Shown here piece by piece: positions 501-18,344 of a stretch of 20,000 nt of DNA. The notes below the pieces were generated by a model, which did not search any database, was not told where the DNA came from, and was given only the letters and a program-made list of their open reading frames with translations. The position numbers and the translations under genes are program-made. Location of the stretch: the IMG/VR virus record IMGVR_UViG_3300021387_000129; one strand, given 5' to 3'. The DNA comes from an uncultured virus (IMG/VR IMGVR_UViG_3300021387_000129). Lineage: Duplodnaviria > Heunggongvirae > Uroviricota > Caudoviricetes. Every line of letters starts with the position of its first letter. Positions within the stretch are counted from its first letter, which is position 1.

Positions 501-535
501 ATAAAAAGAGGAGCCATGTGTTTCCACACAGCTCC
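501..535 (-). terminator. intrinsic terminator, type A
   Basis: GGAGC-TG-TGTG-GAAA-CACA-TG-GCTCC then T-tract; identical to 3342-3367 and 4376-4401. Confidence 0.8.
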
Positions 536-554
536 ATACTCCTTTCGTCTTAAT

Positions 555-857
555 TCATTCGACGTTCGGATCCAACGGGGACACAGGTTGTTGTGGCTGC
601 TCATAATATGCAACCGTCTGCTGAACCCCAGCGTTCTTACCTTTCTTGTAAGCCACGAATGCAGAAGCCACACCTCCGCCGACCGTTACCGCTCCGGCAA
701 CAGCACCTTTCCAATGCCGTTTAAACCAGGCCTTAACGCCCTTCTCTTCGGTCTTCTTCTCAGTCTTCGTTTCCTCTACCTTCTTGGTTTCTTCCACTTT
801 CGGTTCCTCCTTCTTTTCGGTTCCTTCAGTCTCAACAACCTTCTTGTTCTCTTCCAT
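555..857 (-). CDS. hypothetical protein, E/K-rich N-terminus plus one TM segment (cassette cargo)
   Basis: ORF with GGAGG RBS; lies between the motif at 899-925 and the terminator at 501-535. Confidence 0.8.
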   Translation of the reverse strand: MEENKKVVETEGTEKKEEPKVEETKKVEETKTEKKTEEKGVKAWFKRHWKGAVAGAVTVGGGVASAFVAYKKGKNAGVQQTVAYYEQPQQPVSPLDPNVE

Positions 858-898
858 CAGTTTTTACCTCCGAATTATTTTGTGAGATATCACTATCT

Positions 899-925
899 CC
901 ATTATCAGCGTTGTTTTTACTGCGA
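899..925 (-). promoter_or_regulatory. TCGCA-N5-AACA promoter-like motif
   Basis: TCGCA GTAAA AACA ACGCT GATAAT GG. Confidence 0.75.
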
Positions 926-1073
926 GTTTTTGACTGTAATATCTCGCATAGTCTATCCACAGGCATATACATCAATTCCGTCAATGGTATGCCTTCATAT
1001 GGGTCTGTCATGTCACTCGACTCCAGTACCTTCGAATATCCCAGTAATCATAGATCAGCTCGTCAAGGCCGAT

Positions 1074-1970
1074 TCACACGCAATCAGCCTTAATTCTCCA
1101 TCCAAGCCGCATGTCGCTCGGTTCCGTATCGAAATGAATCGCCCAACAGGTATGCTCGCCGTCTGGAGCCGTATCAGGAACCATGTAGATCTCAATCGGG
1201 TCGTCATCAGATCCATCAATTTCGAATCCTTTGTTAAATCCCTGATGCCTGAGCGAAGGCGCATTTGCAATTTTGTCATCAAACCCAATATATTTCACAA
1301 TTTGGCTGAGCGACACACCAACTTCCTTGCCGTCCCAATCTGAGGACATAATCGCGTTCTCATACCTGCTTCTCGGAGGAAGTGCCTTCATCTCACATTG
1401 AGCCTGCTTAATCGCCAACTCGACCCTCTGATGCGTAGAGAAAAATGGGAGCTTGAGCCAATCCAGAACAAACAGTTTGCCTTCTTCTTCTCCCTGCTCA
1501 AAATGAGGAGCTCCGAGAATATCCGCCTTGGTCAGTTTCTGAATATTCTCCTCCGCAACCTTCTGCTGAACTTCCTTCTCTTTCTTTTCGCCCAGCACTT
1601 CTTTGCTCGCCTGCTTGTAATTGTCATAAAGCTTGCGAGTACCTGTATACAGCGCAGTCATCTCAGCCAGGTTCTTCGCAGACACCCGATTACTCCCGAT
1701 ACCGGCTGCAGAAGTACCAACAGCGCACAGAGCAGTGGGAATATAGTCCTTCCAGCAGTTCTTTACTTTGTCCTGGATGCTCAGATCCTCATACTTGATC
1801 CCTTTCTCATCCAGCTTCCGAATACTCTTGATGGTATCCTTATGAGAAATAACCGCCGTCCCAATCGTGCCCACCACATTCACACCTGTCAGAATATTGG
1901 CCCGATTCTTTACAATCCAGTCGCCAGCCTGCTGCGCCATAAGCTTGTAACCTTCAATAATGTAACCCAT
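1074..1970 (-). CDS. conserved phage protein, DUF6353-like (N-terminal hydrophobic helices)
   Basis: 298 aa, AGAAAGGAG RBS; NILTGVNVVGTIGTAVIS...WKDYIPTAL resembles that siphovirus family (from memory, not searched). Confidence 0.6.
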   Translation of the reverse strand: MGYIIEGYKLMAQQAGDWIVKNRANILTGVNVVGTIGTAVISHKDTIKSIRKLDEKGIKYEDLSIQDKVKNCWKDYIPTALCAVGTSAAGIGSNRVSAKNLAEMTALYTGTRKLYDNYKQASKEVLGEKKEKEVQQKVAEENIQKLTKADILGAPHFEQGEEEGKLFVLDWLKLPFFSTHQRVELAIKQAQCEMKALPPRSRYENAIMSSDWDGKEVGVSLSQIVKYIGFDDKIANAPSLRHQGFNKGFEIDGSDDDPIEIYMVPDTAPDGEHTCWAIHFDTEPSDMRLGWRIKADCV

Positions 1971-2003
1971 AGATCCGATCTCCTTTCTTGTCGAGAGAGT
2001 AGT

Positions 2004-2066
2004 AAGAAATAAGGAGAAGAATGCACATACACTCTCCTCCTATAATAAGCATTGTTTTGTTTGCGA
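2004..2066 (-). other. empty cassette: motif directly followed by hairpin and T-tract
   Basis: TCGCA AACAA AACA ATGCT TATTAT AG (2040-2066); hairpin 2012-2041; TATTTCTT. Confidence 0.6.
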
Positions 2067-2069
2067 ATA

Positions 2070-2261
2070 TCATTCTTCAACCATTTCAACACTGGTGTCG
2101 TAAAGGTCATAATAGTTATTGTCTTTTGCGAGATCTTTCATGTGTCTTCCAAATTCCGCGAATTGAGACGCGAAATCAGTATTCGGCAACTCCATGATAG
2201 TTTCTCCTGTTCCTTCCTGGCCAAGGATACTTGTGTAACAATATGTGACCTTTACTTTCAT
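2070..2261 (-). CDS. hypothetical protein
   Basis: 63 aa; start overlaps the stop of the upstream gene. Confidence 0.7.
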   Translation of the reverse strand: MKVKVTYCYTSILGQEGTGETIMELPNTDFASQFAEFGRHMKDLAKDNNYYDLYDTSVEMVEE

Positions 2262-2527
2262 TTTCTATTCCTCCTGTGTTCAGCTGGAGTCTCTGGAGCA
2301 TACCGAGGATCTGGTTCCGGATCTTCCATGAGCTCCTTCATCTTATATTCCGAAACATACTCACCGGTGCTCGTGCGAATACCCGTAGGAGTCTCACCAC
2401 GATCCTTCGCTTCCTTGTACTCCTGAATATAGTACATGATACCAGTCGTCACATCCACCCAGTTGCACCCCATGCCGTAGACCCATTCAAAAGATTTCAT
2501 TGGGTGTTTACGTCTTGCTTCTGCCAT
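2258..2527 (-). CDS. hypothetical protein
   Basis: 89 aa, GGAGG RBS. Confidence 0.75.
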   Translation of the reverse strand: MAEARRKHPMKSFEWVYGMGCNWVDVTTGIMYYIQEYKEAKDRGETPTGIRTSTGEYVSEYKMKELMEDPEPDPRYAPETPAEHRRNRK

Positions 2528-2540
2528 TAAATATCCCTCC

Positions 2541-2861
2541 TTATAAGTCTCTGTTTTCCCACCAATAAAGGTGCTGCAAATATAGGTTCAGGATTTTCAC
2601 CGCACGCCTTGGTAGCTCGTAAGGCCACAATAGATATATCTGAATAATATTGAGAAATTTGGTACGAGTTGGCATCATCTGGTCACTTTTCTCCACTTGA
2701 TCATGCCAGTCGCTCGTATGCATATCGTAAACCGAGTCTGAAATACCATTTTGTTTCTTGGCTCTCTTCGCATACCATACAATAAGCCATGGAAACACAA
2801 GCCGGATAAGAATAACCCCTGTGAGCAGATACGCCAGGATAAAGCTGATGATGTTGATCAA
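2541..2861 (-). CDS. hypothetical membrane protein
   Basis: 106 aa, N-terminal TM helix, abuts the upstream stop. Confidence 0.75.
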   Translation of the reverse strand: MINIISFILAYLLTGVILIRLVFPWLIVWYAKRAKKQNGISDSVYDMHTSDWHDQVEKSDQMMPTRTKFLNIIQIYLLWPYELPRRAVKILNLYLQHLYWWENRDL

Positions 2862-3071
2862 TTACTGTACCTCCGTCTGTTCAATAAATTTGATAAGCCG
2901 ATTGAGTGTGTTTACAATATCTAATTCCTCCCCTTTATCCAGAGATATCATTGGATGAACGGGGTCCACTTCTTCGGCAAGCTGCATTCGATCCATAAGT
3001 TTAAGCTTAAGATTATCCGCGTTGTCCAATAAAATCATAAGTTGTCCAACTGTCATCTTCCTTTCGTCCAT
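2862..3071 (-). CDS. hypothetical protein
   Basis: 69 aa, GGAGG RBS, tight operon spacing. Confidence 0.75.
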   Translation of the reverse strand: MDERKMTVGQLMILLDNADNLKLKLMDRMQLAEEVDPVHPMISLDKGEELDIVNTLNRLIKFIEQTEVQ

Positions 3072-3072
3072 C

Positions 3073-3309
3073 TCAATACCTCCTGCTCAGTTTAGATACG
3101 CACTTACCGATCCAGCCCTTCTTCTTGAATATCTTCCGGGCTTCCGTAGGCTTGTACATCTTGAAGAAATGGCCACCAGCCGGAGTAGTAATCTCATAGG
3201 TCCTCGGTACTTCTGTTCTCAAAACAATCTCCTCCTTCGTAATTCCCCATGCAGAATAATAATTATTGGCACCTGCTGGCATCCTGGTAACCGACGATTT
3301 AGTCACCAT
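3073..3309 (-). CDS. hypothetical basic protein
   Basis: 78 aa, AAGGAGG RBS. Confidence 0.75.
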   Translation of the reverse strand: MVTKSSVTRMPAGANNYYSAWGITKEEIVLRTEVPRTYEITTPAGGHFFKMYKPTEARKIFKKKGWIGKCVSKLSRRY

Positions 3310-3330
3310 TTTAATCCTCCTTTCAGGTCA

Positions 3331-3367
3331 GCGAAAGAAAAGGAGCCATGTGTTTCCACACAGCTCC
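3331..3367 (-). terminator. type A terminator followed by TTTCGC
   Basis: Hairpin 3342-3367, T-tract, TCGC at 3334-3331 with no promoter motif following. Confidence 0.8.
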
Positions 3368-3383
3368 AAATAACCATCCAAAC

Positions 3384-3599
3384 TTAATGAATAGTCACAA
3401 TAGGTTTTTCCTGTTTCCGCTCCTTTCTCTTTTTAAAGTGGTCCACCATCCGATTCGCGCCATTGCTAATTCCTTCGTTAGCGCGATCAATCACAGCTTC
3501 TAAATTCGCTTTGCTGCCTAATCTTCTAAAGACAGCAAATACGAATTTGCAAGCTACAATCGTCGCCATTACTCCGGCTAACCATAACACAAATTCCAT
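3384..3599 (-). CDS. small membrane protein (cassette cargo)
   Basis: 71 aa, AAGGAGG RBS, N-terminal TM. Confidence 0.8.
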   Translation of the reverse strand: MEFVLWLAGVMATIVACKFVFAVFRRLGSKANLEAVIDRANEGISNGANRMVDHFKKRKERKQEKPIVTIH

Positions 3600-3644
3600 A
3601 AGTCATCCTCCTTAAAATATGAATTCAGGGATCGCATTCTCTCC

Positions 3645-3671
3645 CTATATACAGCGTTGTTTCTACTGCGA
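3645..3671 (-). promoter_or_regulatory. TCGCA-N5-AACA motif
   Basis: TCGCA GTAGA AACA ACGCT GTATAT AG; contains the TAG stop of the upstream ORF. Confidence 0.75.
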
Positions 3672-3827
3672 CCCTGCAAAGTTATCCGTTCCAATAAATT
3701 GAGTAGGCAAAGAAATAGAGGCCTGCGTTTCCGCATAAGCCTCTTTATATTCTTCTTCAGTGACAAACTTCATCCATCTTCCGTTCAGCCATCCCATTAC
3801 GGAATAGTCAACATAATAATACTTCAT
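3663..3827 (-). CDS. small hypothetical protein (MKYYYVDY...)
   Basis: AGGAGGTG RBS before ATG at 3827. Confidence 0.65.
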   Translation of the reverse strand: MKYYYVDYSVMGWLNGRWMKFVTEEEYKEAYAETQASISLPTQFIGTDNFAGSQ

Positions 3828-3838
3828 TTGATCACCTC

Positions 3839-3865
3839 CTATCATGAGTGTTGTTTTTACTGCGA
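3839..3865 (-). promoter_or_regulatory. TCGCA-N5-AACA motif
   Basis: TCGCA GTAAA AACA ACACT CATGAT AG; contains the TAA stop of the upstream ORF. Confidence 0.75.
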
Positions 3866-4324
3866 CTTCTGCCCACCGAATATCGACTTTTCAAGTGCAA
3901 TATTTACAGGATGCCCATGTTCAACGACCAAAGGTTGCTGGTGGATAAACTTCTTTTTTAAAACGCGTCCATCAGTAGTCCTGATAGTTATTTCCGGGTA
4001 CTCAATATGATCACCATCCGTATCTCCTTCGTCCGGTTCATCATCCTGTGGCGATTCCTCTTCTGCCAATTGCCGTTCTACTTTCCAATTGGATGCATAT
4101 ACCTCCAACCCCAACTGAAGAAGCTGGACAATCCTTTTGGTAATATTCTCGACATCCTCAATGTCATAGAATGGGAGTGTCATCACCTCAAATGTCGGAT
4201 ACTTGTCCCCAACATTCCATGCCGTCTTAAGAATATACTTCCTGAATTTTGCATACTCTCCAGCATTCTGAAACCGTACCTTAATCGTCACCTGTCCAGT
4301 AAACTTCTCAACATAATCGCTCAT
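3857..4324 (-). CDS. hypothetical protein (backbone)
   Basis: AGAAAGGAG RBS before MSDYVEK; acidic linker. Confidence 0.75.
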   Translation of the reverse strand: MSDYVEKFTGQVTIKVRFQNAGEYAKFRKYILKTAWNVGDKYPTFEVMTLPFYDIEDVENITKRIVQLLQLGLEVYASNWKVERQLAEEESPQDDEPDEGDTDGDHIEYPEITIRTTDGRVLKKKFIHQQPLVVEHGHPVNIALEKSIFGGQKSQ

Positions 4325-4364
4325 ATGCAATCTCCTTTCTAAATTAGACATGACTAATTCGATA

Positions 4365-4401
4365 GCGAAAGAAAAGGAGCCATGTGTTTCCACACAGCTC
4401 C
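4365..4401 (-). terminator. type A terminator followed by TTTCGC
   Basis: 37 bp identical to 3331-3367. Confidence 0.8.
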
Positions 4402-4407
4402 AAATTC

Positions 4408-4707
4408 TTAAATGTTCGTTTCTTTGTTCTTAATGGATTCTTCAACCCATTTATCCGCATTTCTAAACAGTTGATCTGCTTTTTCCTTATTGCTCATATT
4501 ACCTTTCAACAAATTGTCCATCATTTCCACAAAATGCTTTGTCATCACCTCCGTAGTTTTTGCCAGCACTTGACATGCTTTGGCCGTCCTTCTCGACTGA
4601 TATTCCTCCAGTTCTCTAAGAACCAGATGAAACATCATCGGGACAACAGCACCAACCACAATGCCAGTCACCACAATCACCAGAATTGTTCCAAAAACAC
4701 CGTTCAT
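4408..4707 (-). CDS. membrane-anchored helical protein (cassette cargo)
   Basis: GGAGG RBS before MNGVFG; TM helix. Confidence 0.75.
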   Translation of the reverse strand: MNGVFGTILVIVVTGIVVGAVVPMMFHLVLRELEEYQSRRTAKACQVLAKTTEVMTKHFVEMMDNLLKGNMSNKEKADQLFRNADKWVEESIKNKETNI

Positions 4708-4747
4708 AGACATACCTCCTAATAATATAAGGTAGACATCTCTGTCT

Positions 4748-4774
4748 CCATTATCAGCGTTGTTTCTACTGCGA
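4748..4774 (-). promoter_or_regulatory. TCGCA-N5-AACA motif
   Basis: One mismatch versus the 899-925 copy, with flanking AAAAAC and GGAGA also shared. Confidence 0.75.
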
Positions 4775-4792
4775 GTTTTTGCGAAAAAAGAA

Positions 4793-4940
4793 AGGACTTG
4801 TGGGCTTCGAACCCACGTCTCCACATACATGGTGTTCTACCATTAAACTATTCTATCGGCTAGTAAAACCGAGACAGAATTTCTTCCGCTTTTACGCCTT
4901 TCAACGCTCGGCCCTCCGACGGGTTTATACTCCCAATCCT
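4793..4940 (-). ncRNA. tRNA-like structured RNA carried as cassette cargo
   Basis: Closing stem AGGATT/AGTCCT; D-arm-like TAGTTTAATGGTAGAAC; T-arm GTGGG-TTCGAAG-CCCAC; extra domain with two GAAA-capped hairpins; own motif upstream and T-tract-TCGC downstream. Confidence 0.6.
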
Positions 4941-4942
4941 TC

Positions 4943-4969
4943 CTATTTATAGGGATGTTTAAGTTGCGA
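4943..4969 (-). promoter_or_regulatory. TCGCA-N5-AACA motif
   Basis: TCGCA ACTTA AACA TCCCT ATAAAT AG. Confidence 0.7.
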
Positions 4970-4980
4970 ATATAATAGGA

Positions 4981-5008
4981 AGAAAAAGGAAAGGGTTTGT
5001 TCAACCCT
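4981..5008 (-). terminator. type B terminator
   Basis: AGGGTT-GAACA-AACCCT plus T-tract, overlapping the stop codon. Confidence 0.65.
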
Positions 5009-5414
5009 CGCCTTCGGAATTTTCATAATTCTCCATCATGTCGCAAGTCAAGTCAAATGTCCATTGTACTCTATCCCAGCATTTTGTATGATCATAACCG
5101 TCTTCCTCCTGAATCGTGATCTTAATATACTCAGATCCACAGGTCCATTCGTTATCGCCACTTACATACATCGGCATATAGATACTAACATCACATCTAT
5201 ACAACATTTCTTCAAAACTCGCGAAACTAGATTTCGGAAATTCATGTTCTTTAACAAATTCCTTTAAATCAATCTTTTCACTTGTCTGAAAGTAAATAAC
5301 ATCATTGAAATTTTCTTTCAGGTCCCATTCATGATAGTCGTAATTTACATACGAGCATGCGCTCGCACACATAACTACAAATACCAACATAATCACCAGA
5401 ATAAACTTTTTCAT
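5001..5414 (-). CDS. putative lipoprotein (cassette cargo)
   Basis: MKKFILVIMLVFVVMCASAC signal peptide with lipobox-like ASAC; AAGGAG RBS. Confidence 0.75.
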   Translation of the reverse strand: MKKFILVIMLVFVVMCASACSYVNYDYHEWDLKENFNDVIYFQTSEKIDLKEFVKEHEFPKSSFASFEEMLYRCDVSIYMPMYVSGDNEWTCGSEYIKITIQEEDGYDHTKCWDRVQWTFDLTCDMMENYENSEGEG

Positions 5415-5451
5415 TTCCGTTTCTCCTTTCGTTTTAGGGATTCTATCCCTT

Positions 5452-5509
5452 CTATTATAGGGTATGTACATTTTGCGGAAAGAAAAAAGAAAGGGCTTGT
5501 TCAGCCCTT
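5452..5509 (-). promoter_or_regulatory. junction: type B terminator, T-tract, CCGCA motif
   Basis: Hairpin 5491-5509, then CCGCA AAATG TACA TACCC TATAAT AG. Confidence 0.75.
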
Positions 5510-5720
5510 AGTAGTTCCTGATCAACTTCCGAATATAGCCGTTGATCAGATTCCATCCGACCATCAAACCTACCTGCGCAATGCAGAGGTCCCAACTCCG
5601 GATCGTTGCATATGTGTCAAATAACACAATACCCAACTGCACCAGAGTGATGCCTCCAAACACCACATTGATAACAATCTGAATTGTCGAAAAAATCCTC
5701 TCAAAAACCTTCTTTGCCAT
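5508..5720 (-). CDS. small two-TM membrane protein (cassette cargo)
   Basis: AGAAAGGAG RBS before MAKKVF. Confidence 0.75.
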   Translation of the reverse strand: MAKKVFERIFSTIQIVINVVFGGITLVQLGIVLFDTYATIRSWDLCIAQVGLMVGWNLINGYIRKLIRNY

Positions 5721-5758
5721 CTTGAAACTCTCCTTTCTTTTGCGGGATTCTTTCCCGT

Positions 5759-5815
5759 CTACTATAGGGTATGTACATTTTGCGAAAATAAAAGGGCCAT
5801 GCATAAGCACAGCCC
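5759..5815 (-). promoter_or_regulatory. junction: type C terminator, T-tract, TCGCA motif
   Basis: GGGC-TG-TGC-TTAT-GCA-TG-GCCC, then TCGCA AAATG TACA TACCC TATAGT AG. Confidence 0.75.
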
Positions 5816-5822
5816 ATAAGTC

Positions 5823-6170
5823 TTATTCCAGCAAATTCATGCTTGCCAGAATATTGGATAACTTTTCACCTTGTTGTTTTCTTTGATTGATTAACACGTA
5901 GTCATTGTTTCCCAATGGTCGCTTAAGTTTTAGATACATCCCAAGACTCCTGTCATACACATATCGATCTTTGTTAAATTGCTCTTGTTCAACTTGCTTC
6001 AGCTTCTGTCTGCCTCTGTTCCATTTAACAGCAACACCAGCCAGAGAAGTGAACACAGTTCCTCCAACAATCAACTCATCCTTGTGTACCCTACACCAGT
6101 CTCCGAGTTTCCTCATCTTTTCATGAAACTTGCTTTCGACCTTCACCTTGTCCAAATCAATCTCAGGCAT
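5823..6170 (-). CDS. hypothetical single-TM protein (cassette cargo)
   Basis: 115 aa, AAGGAGG RBS. Confidence 0.8.
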   Translation of the reverse strand: MPEIDLDKVKVESKFHEKMRKLGDWCRVHKDELIVGGTVFTSLAGVAVKWNRGRQKLKQVEQEQFNKDRYVYDRSLGMYLKLKRPLGNNDYVLINQRKQQGEKLSNILASMNLLE

Positions 6171-6186
6171 ATAAAAGCCTCCTTTC

Positions 6187-6213
6187 TCATCATTAGCTAT
6201 GTTTCAACTGCGA
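6187..6213 (-). promoter_or_regulatory. TCGCA-N5-AACA motif
   Basis: TCGCA GTTGA AACA TAGCT AATGAT GA. Confidence 0.75.
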
Positions 6214-6222
6214 CCTTATCCA

Positions 6223-6528
6223 TCAAGAATTCCCTCGTTGTATGGGCAAGTCACCTTCAAATTTCTCGATCAGTTTGCATACTTCCGTGGAAGGCACATG
6301 CACGATCTCCTGGAACATAGGAGTATCGAAAAAATCAATGCATTCTTCTATTACATCTTCAGGCGACCTGTGCGGTACATTATGATGTCCTTCTTTGGCT
6401 GTTTTGTAATCGCGCACTGCACGCAGGCATACAGCTGAACACAACCCTCGAATATAAAAGTCATCCGTTGCATTCAGGTCGATGTTGGATTTGTATCGCT
6501 TTTGTTTCCTTCGTCTACGAGTTGCCAT
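6223..6528 (-). CDS. hypothetical phage protein (backbone)
   Basis: 101 aa, AAAGGA RBS; AVCLRAVRDY motif. Confidence 0.75.
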   Translation of the reverse strand: MATRRRRKQKRYKSNIDLNATDDFYIRGLCSAVCLRAVRDYKTAKEGHHNVPHRSPEDVIEECIDFFDTPMFQEIVHVPSTEVCKLIEKFEGDLPIQRGNS

Positions 6529-6552
6529 GAAATCAGTCCTTTCATCATGAGT

Positions 6553-6582
6553 AAAGAAAAAAGGAGAGGCTTATTCAGCCTC
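6553..6582 (-). terminator. type B terminator
   Basis: GAGGCT-GAATA-AGCCTC plus T-tract, overlapping the stop. Confidence 0.65.
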
Positions 6583-6798
6583 CTTCTCCTTTGCAAAAGC
6601 CAACGCTATTTTCCGTCTCACGCGGGTTTGTTTGTTGTCCCGAATCCTTTCAAGAGCTCGTATTTCTCGTTGACGCTCATCAATTTTCGCGTCGTATTCT
6701 GCTTTAATAGCAGCTAACTCTTCGCTTGCTTCAAACCGTTTACGAAGCTCTTTCTGTTCTTCTTCATCAAAAACATACCTTAGTCGCGTTTTAATCAT
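6571..6798 (-). CDS. coiled-coil hypothetical protein (cassette cargo)
   Basis: 75 aa, AGGAGGTG RBS. Confidence 0.75.
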   Translation of the reverse strand: MIKTRLRYVFDEEEQKELRKRFEASEELAAIKAEYDAKIDERQREIRALERIRDNKQTRVRRKIALAFAKEKEAE

Positions 6799-6811
6799 AA
6801 TGCATCACCTC

Positions 6812-6871
6812 CTACTGTAGGCAATGTTTATTATGCGAAAAAATTAAGGGCCCGTGTTTCCACGAACCCTT
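6812..6871 (-). promoter_or_regulatory. junction: type D terminator, T-tract, TCGCA motif
   Basis: AGGG-TT-CGTG-GAAA-CACG-GG-CCCT, then TCGCA TAATA AACA TTGCC TACAGT AG. Confidence 0.75.
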
Positions 6872-6878
6872 TAAGTTC

Positions 6879-7262
6879 TCACTTCTTCTCGTCTTTGATT
6901 ATGAGATTCCCAATATACTTGGGTTTCTCAGTTCTCGTCGGTTCTGTTGCTTTGTCATAGTGCAACTGCCCTATTTTGGGCTTTTCAGCATAATTAAGCG
7001 ATTTCGTCGTGACAATATTGCCCCGATCTTCATGCTTAAGTACGCTCCACACCGTCGCAAAGGAACTGACACTTGAAATCGCAGTCTGCAAGAAGCCCAG
7101 ACCCAACTGAGTGCGCCAGCCCTTATCGTTCTGTTCACTCTTGGTCAGCTTCTCCAGCTGCGTGTTCAACTTGTCATATTCCTCGCTAGTAGGATCTACT
7201 TCAGCCATCCGATCCAACAACCGTTGTCTCGCTTTTTTGATACTGTTTTTGTCGTTGCTCAT
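6879..7262 (-). CDS. hypothetical protein (cassette cargo)
   Basis: 127 aa, AAGGAGGTG RBS. Confidence 0.8.
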   Translation of the reverse strand: MSNDKNSIKKARQRLLDRMAEVDPTSEEYDKLNTQLEKLTKSEQNDKGWRTQLGLGFLQTAISSVSSFATVWSVLKHEDRGNIVTTKSLNYAEKPKIGQLHYDKATEPTRTEKPKYIGNLIIKDEKK

Positions 7263-7278
7263 TTATGCAACACCTCCT

Positions 7279-7338
7279 TCATCTTAATCGATGTTTTGAT
7301 TGCGAAAGAAATTGAGGGCCGTGTTTCCACGAACCCTC
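7279..7338 (-). promoter_or_regulatory. junction: type D terminator, T-tract, TCGCA motif
   Basis: Hairpin 7314-7338, then TCGCA ATCAA AACA TCGAT TAAGAT GA. Confidence 0.75.
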
Positions 7339-7344
7339 GTCTGT

Positions 7345-7497
7345 TCACTCAAACATATCATGATAACTCAGCGTACCATCTATCAGCTCCTTTCTGATGT
7401 CCTCAATCTCGGAAATAACACCTGCGACCGTTACTACTATAGTAGGTCGTTCAGGTTCCTTCACCTCAACCTTGACATCGTCACCAGAGTTTTCCAT
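7345..7497 (-). CDS. 50-aa acidic protein, not in the ORF track (cassette cargo)
   Basis: Hand-translated MENSGDDVKVEVKEPERPTIVVTVAGVISEIEDIRKELIDGTLSYHDMFE; GGAGGTG RBS; fills the space between motif and terminator. Confidence 0.7.
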   Translation of the reverse strand: MENSGDDVKVEVKEPERPTIVVTVAGVISEIEDIRKELIDGTLSYHDMFE

Positions 7498-7522
7498 ACA
7501 GGGTCACCTCCTCATAATACGT

Positions 7523-7584
7523 CTATTATGAGAGATGTTTCTATTGCGAAAGAAAAAAGTAAGGGCCATGCATAAGCACAGCCC
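7523..7584 (-). promoter_or_regulatory. junction: type C terminator, T-tract, TCGCA motif
   Basis: Hairpin identical to 5794-5815, then TCGCA ATAGA AACA TCTCT CATAAT AG. Confidence 0.75.
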
Positions 7585-7590
7585 AATAAG

Positions 7591-7920
7591 TTACTTGTCC
7601 TGTTCTGTGAATACAAACAACACCATCGCTAATAAAGCGATAACGTATTCTTTATCTTTTAGTCCATACTCTCCAGTTTCATCATACCGAAAACTCGATA
7701 ATTCGATTGAGTGATCTCCACTGACCAAGCACAACGTATACGCTGGCAACTCCAGTTCTTCATTCCACCGTTTGCCAACATAATACCTCATGTCTTCGTA
7801 AATTTTACACGAAATCGATTCATCTTCCGTTTTTGGTTGAAGTTCTGCCTCATCCAAAGCTTGAATACATTCTCTGATGTCTTTCATGTATTCATCCAAA
7901 ATGTCATCGTTCTTTTCCAT
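7591..7920 (-). CDS. acidic hypothetical protein (cassette cargo)
   Basis: AAGGAG RBS; start at 7920 or 7929. Confidence 0.75.
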   Translation of the reverse strand: MEKNDDILDEYMKDIRECIQALDEAELQPKTEDESISCKIYEDMRYYVGKRWNEELELPAYTLCLVSGDHSIELSSFRYDETGEYGLKDKEYVIALLAMVLFVFTEQDK

Positions 7921-7955
7921 ACAAAACACTCCTTATTTTTTTGTAACCTTTCGGT

Positions 7956-7982
7956 TCATTATAAGGATTGTTCCTACTGCGA
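7956..7982 (-). promoter_or_regulatory. TCGCA-N5-AACA motif
   Basis: TCGCA GTAGG AACA ATCCT TATAAT GA. Confidence 0.75.
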
Positions 7983-8007
7983 GCTCCGCACCCCTTCACT
8001 ACGTTTA

Positions 8008-8044
8008 GCGGGAAAAAAGAAAGGCCCCGTGTTTCCACGAAGCC
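8008..8044 (-). terminator. type D terminator followed by T-tract-CCGC
   Basis: GGC-TT-CGTG-GAAA-CACG-GG-GCC TTTCTTTTTT CCCGC. Confidence 0.75.
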
Positions 8045-8051
8045 CCTTTGA

Positions 8052-8276
8052 TCACTTCTTTCGTTTTATGACCATCGAATAGAGACCCATCTTGCTCAAT
8101 TCAACACACCTCCTCAATGCTCCTTTTAACGTTCTCTTCTGAGGCAGCAGAATATCGACCGGATAGCACTCAGCCTCCGGATTCACATCCGGTAAACCTT
8201 CCTCCCGGGCGACAATCATCGCCTCTTTTTCATTTTCAACCAACACTGAATTCTGGTATTTCTTGAATAGATGCAT
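8052..8276 (-). CDS. hypothetical protein (cassette cargo)
   Basis: AAGGAGG RBS before MHLFKKY; the upstream part of the track ORF is antisense to the tRNA fragment. Confidence 0.7.
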   Translation of the reverse strand: MHLFKKYQNSVLVENEKEAMIVAREEGLPDVNPEAECYPVDILLPQKRTLKGALRRCVELSKMGLYSMVIKRKK

Positions 8277-8290
8277 CAGCATCCCTCCTT

Positions 8291-8317
8291 TCATTAAAAG
8301 GGATGTTTCTACTGCGA
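8291..8317 (-). promoter_or_regulatory. TCGCA-N5-AACA motif
   Basis: TCGCA GTAGA AACA TCCCT TTTAAT GA. Confidence 0.75.
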
Positions 8318-8406
8318 AAAAAATAGGCAAAAATTTTGGTGTATGTACAGATCGCGGTCTCTTCCTGGCTGTTCCATGGATAAGGCCTTGCGCGGTAATG
8401 TTTCTG

Positions 8407-8454
8407 TCCTTGGTAAGGATGAGGTCGCCGGTTCGAATCCGGCCATCAGCTCCA
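8407..8454 (+). other. attP core: 3' half of tRNA-Thr(GGT)
   Basis: Anticodon loop TTGGTAA, T-arm GCCGG-TTCGAAT-CCGGC, CATCAGC-T-CCA; no 5' half; adjacent to the integrase. Confidence 0.85.
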
Positions 8455-8456
8455 CG

Positions 8457-8494
8457 ACCTGAAGCACGTTGTATCAATGGGCTTCGGGTTTTTT
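8457..8494 (+). terminator. terminator downstream of the reconstituted tRNA
   Basis: ACCTGAAGC...GCTTCGGGT plus T-tract. Confidence 0.6.
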
Positions 8495-8498
8495 GTTA

Positions 8499-9722
8499 TT
8501 ATCCTGTAGACTCCTCGGAAGATCTCATACTTTGAGAATTGTCCAGTGTTTTGTCCGGTTGAGGGTCATTCATGACGAGTCTGACGCTCTCAAATAATTC
8601 GGTTCTGTACTTCACATAGCGTTTCTCTGTTATGTCGCTCTTGGAATGACCAAGCATGCGTGAAATAACGTCCACAGGAATGCCTGATTCACGCCATTCA
8701 GTAGCACACGTATCACGAAAATCATGTGCTGTGTATTGCTGCAAGTCAAATTGGCACCTGATCCGGTTAAATTCCCGCTTAGCCTCTGAATAAGATAGCG
8801 GAGTTTCCCGTTTACCCTCATCCAGATAGCTGCTGAGAATAAAACCAGTAGCATACTTCGGCTTTAATGTCTCCCATACGACTTTTGGCAAGGGAATTTC
8901 CCTGTCGCTCGTCTTGGATTTTGGTGGTTTGATCTCTGGCTGATTCCTCGTTGGATGAACAACAGCCCTTTGAATATGCACCCAGCCCGTCTGAGGATCA
9001 ATATCTTCCCATTTAAGACCGAGCACTTCTTCAAATCGCAGACCCAAATAACACAGGAGTACAGCCATATTCCGAGTACGACTTACAGGCATTTGCGAGA
9101 TTTGAGCTCTTACTTCTGCCATCTTTTCACGAGGTATAGCCTGATGATGCGTCGTAGCTGCCCCTCCAATTACCAGTTTCTCCGACTTCATTGGATTTCG
9201 GGAAATATGTCCATCTTCTACAGCTGAATTCAGCGCAGGAGACATGTTATTCTTGATTTTAAGCAGCGTCTCATGGGAATATCCGTCCTTCTCCAGCTGG
9301 TTAAACCACTCCTGCAATCCTGTAGTGGTGATCTGGTCTACAGGAATGCTACCCCACTTGGGAAGAATATGCTTGCTTACGATGTACGCTCTTGAACTCT
9401 TGGTTAATGACTGCTGTTTAGACTTGTAAACCTTGTTGAACTCCTGTAGATAGCTTCCAAATAAAGGTTCTTTTGGCTTTGGCTTCTCTATATGGCTGAT
9501 GATGCCAGGCATGACGGTGCCCTCCTGGAGACACAGTTGCAAATATCCTTCAAGCAGCTCCTTGAGGGTTTTGCCTGTCACCCAGCACTCTTTACCACCA
9601 ATATTCATCTGCTGCTTATAGCGCTTAGGCATGGTTTCTCCTTCTGCGCAAAGCCCTATTCCGTTTACAAGGTTCAGCAATATACCAAGGACCTGACTTT
9701 GAGTATAAAGAACCTCAGACAT
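8499..9722 (-). CDS. int: tyrosine recombinase / phage integrase
   Basis: Catalytic motifs GLRFEE, PKSK, HDFR, LGHS...RY; SAM-like core-binding domain; alternative start at 9632. Confidence 0.95.
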   Translation of the reverse strand: MSEVLYTQSQVLGILLNLVNGIGLCAEGETMPKRYKQQMNIGGKECWVTGKTLKELLEGYLQLCLQEGTVMPGIISHIEKPKPKEPLFGSYLQEFNKVYKSKQQSLTKSSRAYIVSKHILPKWGSIPVDQITTTGLQEWFNQLEKDGYSHETLLKIKNNMSPALNSAVEDGHISRNPMKSEKLVIGGAATTHHQAIPREKMAEVRAQISQMPVSRTRNMAVLLCYLGLRFEEVLGLKWEDIDPQTGWVHIQRAVVHPTRNQPEIKPPKSKTSDREIPLPKVVWETLKPKYATGFILSSYLDEGKRETPLSYSEAKREFNRIRCQFDLQQYTAHDFRDTCATEWRESGIPVDVISRMLGHSKSDITEKRYVKYRTELFESVRLVMNDPQPDKTLDNSQSMRSSEESTG

Positions 9723-12602: not shown

Positions 12603-12690
12603 AAAGAAAAAAGAGAAAGGCGTGCATTAATCCGAATTCTCAGATTTGCCTTTCTCTCCCTCTCTATTTAGAGCGTTGTTTTTACTGCGA
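12603..12690 (-). other. empty cassette / small RNA: motif, hairpin, T-tract
   Basis: TCGCA GTAAA AACA ACGCT CTAAAT AG (12664-12690); stem AGAGAAAGGC/GCCTTTCTCT. Confidence 0.6.
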
Positions 12691-13034: not shown

Positions 13035-15755
13035 TTATCCTTTTTTTAGTTTGTAATAACCAGAACCATAGTTGTTTTTTACAATGACTTTGATTTTTGA
13101 TCCTGCAACGATATCACCTATTGATATGCTCCCGTATTCTTCAATTACTTCGATTATTCTGCCGTTAAACGTATCTGGGACATCGATGTATTTATTTACG
13201 GACGAATGCGCGTCGACCATCAAATAGATGTCATCGCCGACATAATACCACGCAACGGAAGGCAATTCGTTATCATACGTGATCAGCGGGCATCTGAATC
13301 CAACCATGCTCAAAGTGTCTTCGTCTGTTACGGGTTTGGGGGTTGCGGATGAATAAGAATAGAAAAACGGATGCATTTTGTGTGTTTCGTATATAAACCC
13401 GGCACTGTTGATGACTTTTCTCAGATCGTCAACTCCGTCAGCGTACTTGTTGTTGTACCCTATAACCATCCCGTTTCCCGCTGTGTTGCTGTTGGTATAC
13501 TGGTAGTAGCGAATTGGGGGTTTGTTTGCATCGCGCCATGTGCTCGGTGTCAGTTCTTGTCGTGCGCTTGGGATCGCGCCAACGCCATCGAAAGTCGTAC
13601 CGGGTACAGACCAGTAGTTAAACCCACCAGACGTGGATTGCACACCATGCGCAAACTCGAAATCCCCATCTCTGTTAAAGCCGATTGATTCGTATACCGT
13701 GATACTCCCGCGTTCACTACAATGAAGCACCAGATTCATAGTGAAAAAGCTGTCTGCGATGGCTTCGCTGAAATACGATGAGTTCGTGTTGTTTCCGACA
13801 TGGTTTTTTAGGTACGTTATCATCGCCGCTGAGGAGATGACATCGTACGAGTTCACGATATCAAAGTACGAGCTTCTGTACACCCCGTTTTCCGTTATCT
13901 CGTTTCCTTTGTCATCAAACACCTTTACGGTCTGGTGGTTGATGGCAGGTGTTATTTGTTGACCACGTTCGTACGAACTAAACGTCTTTGTAACACCATC
14001 CCTCGACATGCTATTTACTTCGATAGCAAGCCAATCAAGACCATTATGTGTGTTTACAGGGAAACCACCCCAAATGACGGTGTCGCTTACTATGCGGATG
14101 ATAACAAATTCTTTCCCGTCTATCAGCCATGTTTCGCCGATGTTGCTCTCTGTAAACCCGTGTGCTGATTCGAACGTTAGTTTGTAGCCATATGCGTTCC
14201 CGTGGTTACCACCAACGATTGTTCCGTTCATACGTACACCCGTCATATCGTCTGTGGCAGTTTTGAAGAGCGTTCCGGCTGTTACGTTGTCAGCACTTGT
14301 TTTCGGCAACGTGTAGTAGCTATCGAAGTTAAACACGTTGTCCGTTGTGTTTATAATAAACTTAATGGCTATATCGAGTTCAGAATCGAATCTGCTCCTG
14401 ACATGAAAATCTGTTCCGATTTTGTTTAATATAACATCTCCATTCGGTGTGATTTGCTCTATCCTCTTTTCGAGTTCGCTTATTTTTTTAGTGTTTGAAT
14501 TAATCTTTGATTGTAGAGTTGTCTCTCCATAAACCAATATCTCGCTTATAGGTATTCCAGACAGATCATCATGTACTCCGTAGTACTCGTCCGATGAGCT
14601 ATGAACGCTTCTGTTGGTGATATAGAAAACCACATACTCAACCCCGGAGTTATCTTTAATCTCTATTGAAAGGTCTTTATCATTACCGGAGAAGTTAACG
14701 TAATCTGTTGAACCGCCATGCCAAATGGCATTTGTCAAGCCATATGCTCTATACCCATTCGATGAATTATTTATATTAAAAGCAAAAAGCGGGTTTTTCG
14801 ATGCCCCGTAAAGAGCAACATCGCCAATGTAAAGCGTTTCTGTTTTTATGTTTATAGTTCTTCCTAACGCAGACACAGGGATATATCCGCTTAGTATACC
14901 ATTAGCGAACGACACAAACGATCCGTTACTATTCTGTATGATGTAATGATCCACAACGTAATCGCTTACATCTACTGTTCCCATATTGAAACTGTTTATA
15001 TTTTTTATTTTGGCCGTGTTTGCGGCAACATCTGTTTCAAGATGTCCGATTCTGTTTTCTGCGCCTAAAAGCCCTTTTTCTTTTGTTGCTATAGCCCAAT
15101 ACACTACGTCCTCATGTGTTAAAGCCGGGTGGGCAGAACCGTAGTATGCGTTAAAAGCAATTTTTGCGGCTGTCGGATATGCCGTTTTTATGCTCGATGA
15201 TACGACGGTAAGGCTTCGTGAAATAAATTCACCAAGAAATGTTCCAGACTCATTCCAACAAACAACGTTCCATATGGAGTAACCAGAAAAAGCATTTATA
15301 AGTTCATATGTTACATCTTCTTGAATATCTACGATGTCAGTGCAAGCCCAACCATCATCGGACCTAACCTGTCCTGTTGATTTGAGGTAATATTTGTTTG
15401 GTAGAAAATAACCTGTGCCGCCACCATATATATATAGTCCGTCCTTTTTATAAAAAGCGCTCTTTAAGTCACCAATCTCATCCTCAAAGCTCACTTCATC
15501 CCAATGCGCAGCCGTCCAGGATTCAGTTGTTTGAATATCCGTTTTTGCCACGTATGGTTTATCCGCATATAGACAATAAGTTCCAGCAGTAACAGGGAAA
15601 GTCAAATCCTCATATCTTGAGGCAATAATGACAGTATCACCACGATCACCCTTAGCACCTGGCGCTCCAGGATCACCCTGTCTTCCGGGCGGCCCAACAA
15701 TCGCAGGAATATCAATCCAATTCCCTTGACTATCCTTGACTCTCAATATATTCAT
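13035..15755 (-). CDS. large fibre / receptor-binding-like protein with collagen repeats
   Basis: GPPGRQGDPGAPGAKGDRGD, short carbohydrate-binding-like motif, coiled segments, beta-rich body; GGAGG RBS at MNILRV. Confidence 0.75.
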   Translation of the reverse strand: MNILRVKDSQGNWIDIPAIVGPPGRQGDPGAPGAKGDRGDTVIIASRYEDLTFPVTAGTYCLYADKPYVAKTDIQTTESWTAAHWDEVSFEDEIGDLKSAFYKKDGLYIYGGGTGYFLPNKYYLKSTGQVRSDDGWACTDIVDIQEDVTYELINAFSGYSIWNVVCWNESGTFLGEFISRSLTVVSSSIKTAYPTAAKIAFNAYYGSAHPALTHEDVVYWAIATKEKGLLGAENRIGHLETDVAANTAKIKNINSFNMGTVDVSDYVVDHYIIQNSNGSFVSFANGILSGYIPVSALGRTINIKTETLYIGDVALYGASKNPLFAFNINNSSNGYRAYGLTNAIWHGGSTDYVNFSGNDKDLSIEIKDNSGVEYVVFYITNRSVHSSSDEYYGVHDDLSGIPISEILVYGETTLQSKINSNTKKISELEKRIEQITPNGDVILNKIGTDFHVRSRFDSELDIAIKFIINTTDNVFNFDSYYTLPKTSADNVTAGTLFKTATDDMTGVRMNGTIVGGNHGNAYGYKLTFESAHGFTESNIGETWLIDGKEFVIIRIVSDTVIWGGFPVNTHNGLDWLAIEVNSMSRDGVTKTFSSYERGQQITPAINHQTVKVFDDKGNEITENGVYRSSYFDIVNSYDVISSAAMITYLKNHVGNNTNSSYFSEAIADSFFTMNLVLHCSERGSITVYESIGFNRDGDFEFAHGVQSTSGGFNYWSVPGTTFDGVGAIPSARQELTPSTWRDANKPPIRYYQYTNSNTAGNGMVIGYNNKYADGVDDLRKVINSAGFIYETHKMHPFFYSYSSATPKPVTDEDTLSMVGFRCPLITYDNELPSVAWYYVGDDIYLMVDAHSSVNKYIDVPDTFNGRIIEVIEEYGSISIGDIVAGSKIKVIVKNNYGSGYYKLKKG

Positions 15756-16126
15756 TTTATCCTCCAAAAGAAGCTGGGAATTTCAGATCCTGAATCCCAG
15801 CTATCATAATAATCACCATCAATGATTGCCACAGCATGACTTCCTGTTCCAATAATATATACCCCTCTGGGATACATCTTGGTAAACAGATCAATCGTCA
15901 CACATGTTGGGCAGTTATCAGGAAGGAGAAACGGTTCAAATCCCATTTGATAAAGATACTTGCCCCAGACTGCGTCCGCGACAGGAATATTGAACTCTTT
16001 TCGACCAAGAGCACACAGATCGTCATAAACATCGATCCATCTCCGGTTCAGAGCAATAGTAATAGCACGAATAACACAGTCTGGGACTTCTTTGTGAGCA
16101 GGGTTCGGGTTACATCTCATCCACAT
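15752..16126 (-). CDS. conserved phage protein, putative papain-like Cys-His-Asp hydrolase
   Basis: DCVIRAI...SHAVAIIDG..YYDSWDS. Confidence 0.6.
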   Translation of the reverse strand: MWMRCNPNPAHKEVPDCVIRAITIALNRRWIDVYDDLCALGRKEFNIPVADAVWGKYLYQMGFEPFLLPDNCPTCVTIDLFTKMYPRGVYIIGTGSHAVAIIDGDYYDSWDSGSEIPSFFWRIK

Positions 16127-16379
16127 GAGCTTCGTCGCTCCATGGTTCTTCGTAGCTCATAGCCCTTTCGCTGTCGCCAATTCCCTGAGTGGTAGGATCA
16201 ACCAGCACACCGATCAGACCTAAGAAGGTCAAGATTTGACTGGCAACCTTCATCATGGTGTTTTCAGTCACGATCGGAACCACGTCAAACAGCTCCAGCA
16301 TGCTGAATACAAATCCAATGATCAGCGACACGAACATCGTGAGCCAGGTTTTATTTTTGAACCGTACTTTCCAATTCAT
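16110..16379 (-). CDS. phage holin, phiLC3 family
   Basis: MNWKVRFKNKTW, two TMs, GVLVDPTTQGIGDSERAMSY signature. Confidence 0.9.
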   Translation of the reverse strand: MNWKVRFKNKTWLTMFVSLIIGFVFSMLELFDVVPIVTENTMMKVASQILTFLGLIGVLVDPTTQGIGDSERAMSYEEPWSDEAHVDEM

Positions 16380-18279: not shown

Positions 18280-18344
18280 AATAAAAAAGAAGAGAGAGGC
18301 ACATTCTGTATCCCTCTCTATAATAAGGCATGCTTTTATTGCGA
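18280..18344 (-). other. empty cassette: motif, hairpin, T-tract
   Basis: TCGCA ATAAA AGCA TGCCT TATTAT AG (18318-18344); stem AGAGAGG/CCTCTCT 18293-18319. Confidence 0.6.

Follow-up and report, generated by a model that had tools for sequence, protein, structure and literature searches.

Integrons are defined by the integrase IntI, the sites attI and attC, and Pc, a common promoter for cassettes that have none of their own. Morons, in lambdoid phages, are promoter-gene-terminator units inserted between core genes. Promoters of the T7/SP6 class of phage RNA polymerases have a long conserved sequence. Here, we compare such systems with an array of small genes in a 20,000-nucleotide stretch of DNA (the window) from an uncultured virus (IMG/VR record IMGVR_UViG_3300021387_000129; Caudoviricetes). 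In the array, small open reading frames (ORFs) alternate with intrinsic terminators and with copies of a promoter-like motif that starts TCGCA. An earlier note on this DNA had read each gene as a cassette, bounded by TCGC cores, in an integron-like capture system. The closest known system is a different one: the PeSL terminator/promoter cassette of T4-type myoviruses. Two reports describe PeSLs as composite repeats of early promoter and stem-loop, upstream of ORFans in hyperplastic regions of T4-type phages, where recombination between them leads to indels, replacements, and mini-circles (PMC2839356, PMC4122927).

The window represents the early region, rich in ORFans, of a siphovirus-like and temperate phage of the ruminant gut, and all of its genes are on the minus strand. 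We think it probable that related phages exchange such small genes, in their promoter-terminator frames, through recombination in the repeated control sequences rather than through an integron-like enzyme.

TCGC sites form the edge of a promoter-like motif

Listing every (T/C)CGCA in the window, with its context, revealed a motif of about 25 bp: TCGCA-N6-ACA-N6-(T)ATAAT, followed by a run of purines. The skeleton TCGCA-N6-ACA-N10-T has 14 matches, all on the minus (coding) strand, compared to 0.18 expected. None of 200 shuffled sequences reached 14. Two degenerate copies, with CCGCA at 5478 and with GCA in place of ACA at 18344, bring the number to 16. Fourteen of these are inside the array, which runs from 8317 to 925, and two (12690 and 18344) are outside. 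In every one of the 16 copies, three purines directly follow the hexamer. The shorter string TTTYCGC, taken alone, is not enriched (10 matches, 7.0 expected). Read from the sequence, the TCGC sites are the first bases, and so the invariant 5' edge, of a putative promoter of about 25 bp, rather than a recombination core.

We predict that the motif is a phage promoter. An alternative is that it is used by the host sigma-A enzyme, with the hexamer as -10 element, an unusual upstream element, and maybe a phage activator. The units would then be early genes or morons, turned over by ordinary illegitimate recombination and selection, and the repeats would play no special part. The hexamer does resemble TATAAT. 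However, no motif copy has a -35 element at 16-18 bp spacing, and TCGCA is only 14 bp from the hexamer. A sigma-70 scan of the window called 43 sites, compared to 41.6 expected, and none was a motif copy. Furthermore, in 6 of the 14 array copies, the core of the Shine-Dalgarno (SD) sequence, GGAGG, starts at most 7 nt after the hexamer (range 2-7 nt). At 3865, 6838, and 2066, it begins 2 nt past the hexamer. Since transcripts from a sigma-70-type start, 6-8 nt further on, would lack the SD sequence, transcription probably starts directly after the hexamer, in the purine run. We consider the sigma-A alternative, as a whole, unlikely.

Some copies resemble each other beyond the motif. P5785 (5730-5785) and P5478 (5425-5478), both on the minus strand, have a common promoter and 5' untranslated region (UTR), with a small hairpin, ahead of unrelated ORFs. 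The same applies to P4774 (4715-4774) and P925 (870-925), also on the minus strand. The stretches shared within these two pairs are ~55-60 nt long and 88-92% alike. Separately, the promoter copies at 18280-18344 and 2012-2066 (minus strand) are followed at once by a hairpin and T-rich run; the hairpin at 2041-2012 includes AGGAGG. These hairpins, after copies 18344 and 2066, look more like leader attenuators than plain 5' hairpins.

The motif is kept in distantly related phages

Metagenomes were scanned with a 25-position version of the motif. This identified a 5942 bp close relative of the array (L023; 83-98% identity) and a fragment 100% identical to window positions 4657-6687 (L028). More distant contigs (L020/L030, L025, L027, and L029) have between 5 and 10 same-strand copies each. 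In these, the motif array comes after tape-measure and ReqiPepy6-Gp37-like tail genes and is followed by DUF6353 and a DUF5906 primase/polymerase. With a 28-position consensus, more than 143 exact loci were found in IMG/VR, where we estimate that ~0.1 would occur by chance. Upstream of TCGCA, 154 distinct contexts have no conserved position and are only T-rich (0.43 compared to 0.245). The 46 nt upstream fold at -10.9 kcal/mol, compared to -6.0 kcal/mol for a downstream control. The hexamer is at a fixed distance and is followed by conserved purines, so that the whole 25-29 bp behaves as one element.

This last property bears on a further possibility. Stoperators, in Cluster A mycobacteriophages, are repeated and oriented regulator binding sites. 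Likewise, TCGCA-N6-ACA might be an oriented site for a phage regulator, placed over a minimal -10 promoter, that silences the units or sets their timing. Many copies in one orientation, two of them outside the array, would suit such an operator. So would the ribbon-helix-helix (RHH) protein encoded in the window and the helix-turn-helix (HTH) domains of the gp88-type proteins introduced below. However, behaviour as one element, hexamer and purines included, argues against a separate operator, and we rate this reading as very unlikely. Note that the two readings are compatible; binding of a putative regulator does not exclude the exchange between control sequences proposed here.

In GenBank, a 38-nt motif copy matches 114 phage records, mostly at intergenic positions near 30 kb (Arthrobacter 49, Streptomyces 24, Gordonia 16). 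In Arthrobacter phage Gordon, the holin gene is directly followed by four copies, near 30.5-31.7 kb and ahead of gp35-gp38, where gp38 is a DUF6353 protein. Copies 2 and 3 are preceded by a terminator hairpin and T-tract. The same 25 bp is therefore kept in phages of Actinobacteria and in the window phage, which has 43% GC and Firmicutes-style GGAGG sites. This, again, argues against the host enzyme as reader. We found no promoter described for these phages in the openly readable literature. A 19-mer version of the motif was also tried. In genome contigs it gave 13 single matches, in unrelated taxa, which were treated as chance because we estimate that ~17 would occur at random. In IMG/VR it gave one locus (L001), with no further motif copy, also treated as chance.

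A candidate RNA polymerase occurs alongside the motif

Phage Gordon encodes a 917-residue protein, gp88, annotated as 'RNA-dependent RNA polymerase' (RdRP). It has a GADFDGD sequence, a weak match to an RdRP family of Pfam, and a C-terminal HTH. Homologues are in 250 phage records (Arthrobacter 95, Gordonia 55, Streptomyces 54, Lactococcus 13, Faecalibacterium 2, and others). We searched nine motif-bearing IMG/VR contigs, and six have a gp88 homologue, including all three that are at least 90% complete. The three without are 14-66% complete. In three of the six (records G001, G003, and G009), the match is broken by one in-frame stop (TAG, TAG, and TAA respectively), which could be read-through, recoding, a split gene, or sequencing error.

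On balance, we lean slightly towards the motif being read by the RdRP/YonO-like phage RNA polymerase of this group, rather than by the host sigma-A enzyme. A preprint describes the same supergroup of phages, and proposes RNA-polymerase activity as a potential; its main text has the word 'promoter' zero times (10.1101/842583). For YonO of SPbeta, another report states that the promoter sequence recognised still needs further work (PMC5467207).

Terminators abut the promoter copies

The window has 31 terminator-like sites, where 14.2 would be expected. Strong sites occur in the array, on the minus strand. Seven hairpins were folded and, against shuffled sequences, five have z-scores between -3.2 and -5.4. 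The two weak ones are 6590-6560 and the T-arm-like 4815-4785, with z-scores of -1.8 and -0.6 (order not assigned). The terminator hairpins form repeated families, and are short and G+C-rich with T-tracts. In most cases, a promoter copy comes immediately after the T-tract of a strong intrinsic terminator. Hence, T-tracts run into TCGC because the terminator of one unit abuts the promoter of the next.

The nine joints between a T-tract and (T/C)CGC, which the earlier note had listed, are all present on the minus strand (3334, 4368, 4784, 5478, 5785, 6838, 7305, 7549, and 8011). Similarly, TCGCA is indeed duplicated, at 4784-4780 and 4774-4770. The note had also held that no promoter follows TCGC at 3334, 4368, 4784, and 8011. 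That is so for the first two; for the others, a promoter copy begins 10 nt after 4784 and 29 nt after 8011. Moreover, 3334 and 4368 are not independent, since they lie in two copies of one ~45-bp terminator module. A third copy, at 510-535, lacks TCGC. The CCGC at 8011 is CCTG in L023. In the same vicinity, L023 and metagenome run X5 have an 11-nt insertion (window 8005-8010, L023 5500-5520) like a tandem duplication of a neighbouring AAACGTAGTGA-like element. A similar element is ahead of the L023 promoter homologous to P3671.

These joints are the starting point for the integron-like reading, where cassettes with a 4-bp TCGC core at both ends are excised as circles and inserted by a site-specific recombinase. 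The setting is suggestive. As the earlier note had it, the array begins beside attP and a tyrosine recombinase: the integrase (8499-9722) and attP core (~8408-8454) adjoin the first unit, and the array starts ~90 bp from attP. Contigs from four gut-metagenome runs share this attP stretch (depth 85-683) and diverge at 8407 and 8440-8454 into tRNA 5' parts. Because the contigs share exactly 8408-8454, and diverge on both sides, we take this to be the attP core. It contains no TCGC, as read from the sequence. The integrase scores 19.2 bits against the integron-integrase model TIGR02249, for which the cut-off is 265, and its best matches are generic phage-integrase families. The integron core GTTRRRY has 15 matches between 500 and 8400, all inside ORFs or, by chance, in one hairpin; none is at a unit joint. 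Furthermore, TCGCA is part of a ~25-bp motif kept across hundreds of phage contigs.

Units come and go, with breakpoints at repeats and at gene ends

We globally aligned window positions 3200-8470 with L023. There are four unit-scale indels, together with allele replacements. The first, 6882-6533, is only in the window; one end is at a stop codon and the other at a start codon, and neither is at TCGC. The second is the window-only unit 6213-5786, with TCGCA at both ends. Run X5 also lacks it, and there 5786 is joined to 6218. The third is an L023-only unit at window 4781/4782, where the window sequence, TTTTTTCG/CAAAAACTCGCAG, does not join two TCGCA cores. The fourth is an L023-only block of 1146 bp, with two ORFs, that starts 12 nt after the TCGC at 3334 and ends at a start codon. 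Hence, only one of the four unit-scale indels is TCGCA-to-TCGCA, and two end at start or stop codons. The check proposed in the earlier note, that indel breakpoints in relatives fall precisely at TCGC, thus came out negative. By our reading, 6-7 of ~15 breakpoints are within 10 nt of a YCGC edge, and such edges cover ~6% of the region. The others are mostly at start or stop codons, as the sigma-A reading would expect if selection keeps whole genes.

Allele replacements show the same modularity. The 10 promoters shared by the window and L023 are 88-100% identical (243 of 250 bases). ORFs are 65-98% identical, with bimodal protein identity (62-99%). Thus, ORFs 7920-7591 and 5720-5508 are each 65% identical between promoters that match at all 25 positions. 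In addition, the cargo of unit 6213-5786 has a 30%-identical homologue in the L029 array.

Other arrangements were sought in gut-metagenome runs; all 20 runs listed are in the form of assembled contigs. Run X5 reproduces the L023 form. Contigs in runs X3 and X4 join these terminators to other promoters (for instance, 2066 to 6839, with one letter between). Joints with short sides, in X2-X4, were taken only as signs of other element combinations. A 'goes back' joint in X2 (6878 to 4779, side 32) has a depth of 84, compared to ~5 for the phage. It was not counted because some other, more abundant entity with the same elements is its most likely source. Separately, the window-only block of the first indel and the L023-only unit of the third have the same frame (window 6565-6838 and L023 2636-2956, minus strand), at different array positions, around unrelated cargo proteins. 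The frame consists of a promoter with AAACATTGC, the SD-ATG spacing, and a terminator GAGGCTGAATAAGCC that overlaps the -EAE stop.

We also compared the interval from holin to DUF6353 in seven cultured Gordonviruses. In four of these (Nightmare, Synepsis, Breylor17, and DevitoJr), the array opens with a cargo ORF that is absent in two others (Gordon and Darby). In the seventh, Teacup, this ORF is in fourth place and follows a copy of another unit's promoter. Gordon and Darby have a hybrid first promoter, in which the upstream flank and bases 1-15 are those of the missing unit's promoter; the remainder, and the downstream flank, are those of the next promoter. A unit with a 210-bp gene, in two of the seven phages, is flanked by direct repeats of ~50 bp that comprise a terminator hairpin, T-tract, and the 5' half of a promoter. 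The hybrid promoter and direct-repeat junctions therefore indicate homologous exchange between repeated regulatory sequences, and not use of a fixed 4-bp core. They also argue against the sigma-A reading, since the repeats themselves are the crossover sites.

We conclude that units are indeed modules that come and go, as the earlier note had supposed: four indels and replacements separate the window from L023, gut contigs have other combinations, and cargo is repositioned in Gordonviruses. Conversely, TCGC is not the 4-bp core of site-specific capture. It is a motif edge common to a large phage group, position 4781/4782 is not a core join, and Gordonvirus junctions are inside promoters or in ~50-bp repeats. 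Unit content that varies among relatives, and one window-only unit bounded by TCGCA on both sides, would also be seen with an integron-like array, which we nevertheless find scarcely credible.

A model for exchange and points that weigh against it

According to the model, a full unit would comprise the ~25-bp promoter, often a 5' hairpin, an SD sequence and small ORF (in one case, a tRNA-like RNA instead), and an intrinsic terminator. Promoters and terminators, repeated in one orientation, would supply short homologies. Recombination at these would then delete, insert, replace, and reposition units, by the same logic as for the PeSL cassettes of T4-type phages.

Several observations weigh against this account or parts of it. 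Promoter function and the start site are both deduced from sequence, rather than from transcript 5' ends of the window phage. Three units stand behind strong terminators with no motif promoter (ORF 6528-6223, ORF 4324-3857, and the five-ORF block 3309-2070). Hence, either the transcribing enzyme reads through these terminators in part, or there are promoters of a second type. Three T-tract-TCGC sites (3334, 4368, and 4784) run into non-promoter sequence, as the integron-like reading would have it. Breakage right after TCGC(A) may thus exceed what plain homology leads one to expect. Unit 6213-5786, with TCGCA at both ends, has 5 bp of shared sequence only. Assembled contigs cannot show rare circles or deletions. 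With regard to the polymerase, no RdRP-like gene is in the 20-kb window, where the 906-residue ORF is unrelated to gp88. FP_oengus was scanned and has the polymerase gene without the motif. In Gordon, the polymerase gene is the last in the genome and the motif precedes early genes. This requires either a virion-borne enzyme or recognition of the promoter by the host; consistent with the sigma-A reading, promoters ahead of the first early genes could not be served from a genome-end gene unless the enzyme is packaged.

Organization of the window

Coordinates are collected in Table 1. By our count, 11 units have the full frame of promoter, SD sequence, ORF, and terminator, and there is one non-coding unit. 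This agrees with the 'about a dozen' framed units of the earlier note. Its description of the units as self-contained is right for those 11 and does not extend to all, because three lack a motif promoter and several lack a terminator.

The non-coding unit (4785-4969) matches the Rfam tRNA model with 29.1 bits, at model positions 8-63, and ends in a T-arm-like hairpin and T-tract. ARAGORN called no tRNA at this position. In L023, 158 of 160 bases are identical (99%). Gordonvirus arrays, and L029 at ~7420-7460, likewise have promoter-driven stretches free of ORFs with T-arm-like hairpins, of the GGTTCGAATCC type; L181 (~4380-4510) is listed as a further case.

Outside the array, the 906-residue ORF had no match in Pfam, PHROG, or NCBIfam. 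In IMG/VR, the match is limited to the first ~107 residues, and there, too, it adjoins a holin homologue. We considered this ORF as a gp88-type polymerase and, on comparison with Gordon gp88, found it unrelated. A search of IMG/VR found no confirmed relative of the window's DUF6353 protein, and megablast and blastn searches of GenBank phages found no match to the array.

Table 1. Features of the window, in order of decreasing position. P denotes a candidate promoter (motif copy).
Feature	Position	Strand	Details
Tail-spike-like ORF	18378-19994	-	
Degenerate promoter copy	18320-18344	-	Between tail-spike ORF and next genes; then hairpin and T-run
Holin	16110-16379	-	
906-residue ORF	13035-15755	-	Directly after holin; no family match
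Promoter copy outside array	12666-12690	-	
Small ORFs between 906-residue ORF and integrase		-	RHH protein among them
Tyrosine integrase	8499-9722	-	Ordinary phage type; PF00589 E 1.8e-20, phrog_1 E 2.7e-54
attP core	~8408-8454	+	Resembles a host tRNA gene, 3' part; Rfam T-arm/acceptor-like match 8415-8448
Small ORFs	8317 down to base 1	-	
P8317, first unit	8293-8317	-	ORF 8276-8052; promoter 25/25 identical in L023
Intrinsic terminator of first unit	8020-8047	-	T-tract into CCGC 8011
P7982	7958-7982	-	ORF 7920-7591, terminator 7584-7563; L023: promoter 25/25, ORF 65%, terminator 27%
P7549	7525-7549	-	ORF 7497-7345, terminator 7338-7314; motif copy
P7305	7281-7305	-	ORF 7262-6879, terminator 6871-6846; motif copy, terminator scan, folding
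Window-only block	6533-6882	-	Terminator, P6838 (6838-6814), ORF 6798-6571, terminator 6583-6565, SD; 73 bp instead in L023 and X5
ORF without motif promoter or own terminator	6223-6528	-	
Window-only unit with P6213	5786-6213	-	ORF 6170-5823, terminator 5815-5794; absent in L023 and X5
P5785	5761-5785	-	ORF 5720-5508, terminator 5509-5491; L023: promoter 25/25, ORF 65%
P5478 (CCGCA variant)	5454-5478	-	ORF 5414-5001, terminator 5009-4991; near-duplicate of P5785, including 5'UTR hairpin
Non-coding unit with P4969	4785-4969	-	~160 nt with partial tRNA-like fold (4850-4800), T-tract
TCGCA-AAAAC-TCGCA duplication and P4774	4750-4784	-	ORF 4707-4408, terminator 4401-4376; extra unit here in L023
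ORF without motif promoter	3857-4324	-	After terminator 4401-4376 and TCGC 4368; 3' end contains P3865
P3865	3841-3865	-	ORF 3827-3663; SD 2 nt after hexamer
P3671	3647-3671	-	ORF 3599-3384, terminator 3367-3342 (T-tract into TCGC 3334)
Five-ORF block without motif promoter or terminator	2070-3309	-	L023: 1146 extra bases (2 ORFs) just upstream
P2066	2042-2066	-	Leader hairpin 2041-2012, DUF6353 ORF 1970-1074
P925	901-925	-	ORF 857-555, terminator 535-510

Discussion

The motif statistics, terminators, spread of the motif, modular turnover, and hybrid-promoter/direct-repeat junctions are established here. In consequence, the attractive but wrong label 'phage integron' is removed. Instead, regulatory-repeat shuffling, so far described for T4-type myoviruses, also appears to shape the ORFan region in a widespread group of siphoviruses, unrelated to these. 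This would be a second, independent case. The hybrid-promoter junctions are clean enough that crossover positions can be measured. In addition, a polymerase family with unknown promoters gains a sharply defined candidate, for which a cultured system, Arthrobacter sp. ATCC 21022 with phage Gordon, is at hand.

A broader proposal has two parts, and we put forward their combination tentatively, as a possibility that may well not hold. The motif would be the still-undescribed promoter of the single-chain RdRP/YonO-like polymerase that marks the Gordon/ReqiPepy6/1706 phage supergroup, which spans Actinobacteria and Firmicutes. The terminator-promoter joints, for their part, would be portable recombination modules, like PeSL mini-circles, that move ORFans and tRNA-like RNAs within and between phages, with breakage favoured at the T-tract/TCGCA edge. 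If joints are portable in this way, ORFans and tRNA-like RNAs could hop within and between these phages.

Comparison with known systems

Like an integron, the window has a tandem row of small, unrelated ORFs, in one orientation beside a tyrosine recombinase, with content that varies among relatives. However, integron membership fails on every feature tested. Integrons have an IntI-type integrase, whereas that of the window is of the generic phage type. Boundaries in integrons are attC-like imperfect palindromes, and in the window none was found, with short terminator hairpins and T-tracts in their place. Integron cassettes are promoterless; the array has 14 motif copies, with one before most units. 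The earlier note had already set the units apart from integron cassettes by their own promoter and terminator, which is right for most of them. Finally, integron cassettes are gained and lost exactly at the core, whereas junctions in the window and Gordonviruses are not site-specific.

Morons are also self-contained promoter-ORF-terminator units with functions that are unknown, and the units of the window adjoin attP. Unlike the window, with its dozen units, one apparently phage-specific promoter, and shared terminator families, morons are single insertions, have host-type promoters, and are expressed from the prophage. As for promoters of phage polymerases, these share with the motif a conserved coding-strand repeat of ~25 bp and a purine run directly after an A/T-rich element. 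Similarly, the motif co-occurs, in relatives, with a phage polymerase gene. The candidate enzyme differs from the T7/SP6 class in being a two-barrel, RdRP/YonO-like protein. Its activity is called potential in the preprint (10.1101/842583), and its gene is not in the window.

Differences from PeSLs are in lineage and detail. The window phage is siphovirus-like and temperate, with Gram-positive hosts, whereas PeSLs belong to T4-type myoviruses. The PeSL promoter is an early promoter like those of host sigma-70; that of the window is not sigma-70-like, and is probably a phage polymerase's. The hairpin and T-tract precede the promoter in the window, whereas the PeSL stem-loop is often within the promoter or overlaps it. 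Mini-circles have been described for PeSLs, whereas the window's units are known from assembled contigs alone. Nevertheless, the likeness is extensive. In both, composite terminator/promoter repeats are upstream of ORFans in a variable early region, and the window's relatives have the same arrangement. In both, indels and replacements between close relatives are bounded by repeats, although in the window some breakpoints coincide with start or stop codons. In either system, a single-unit circle would carry one joint; for the window, this is a proposal from sequence alone. In both, recombination between the repeats is the proposed mechanism.

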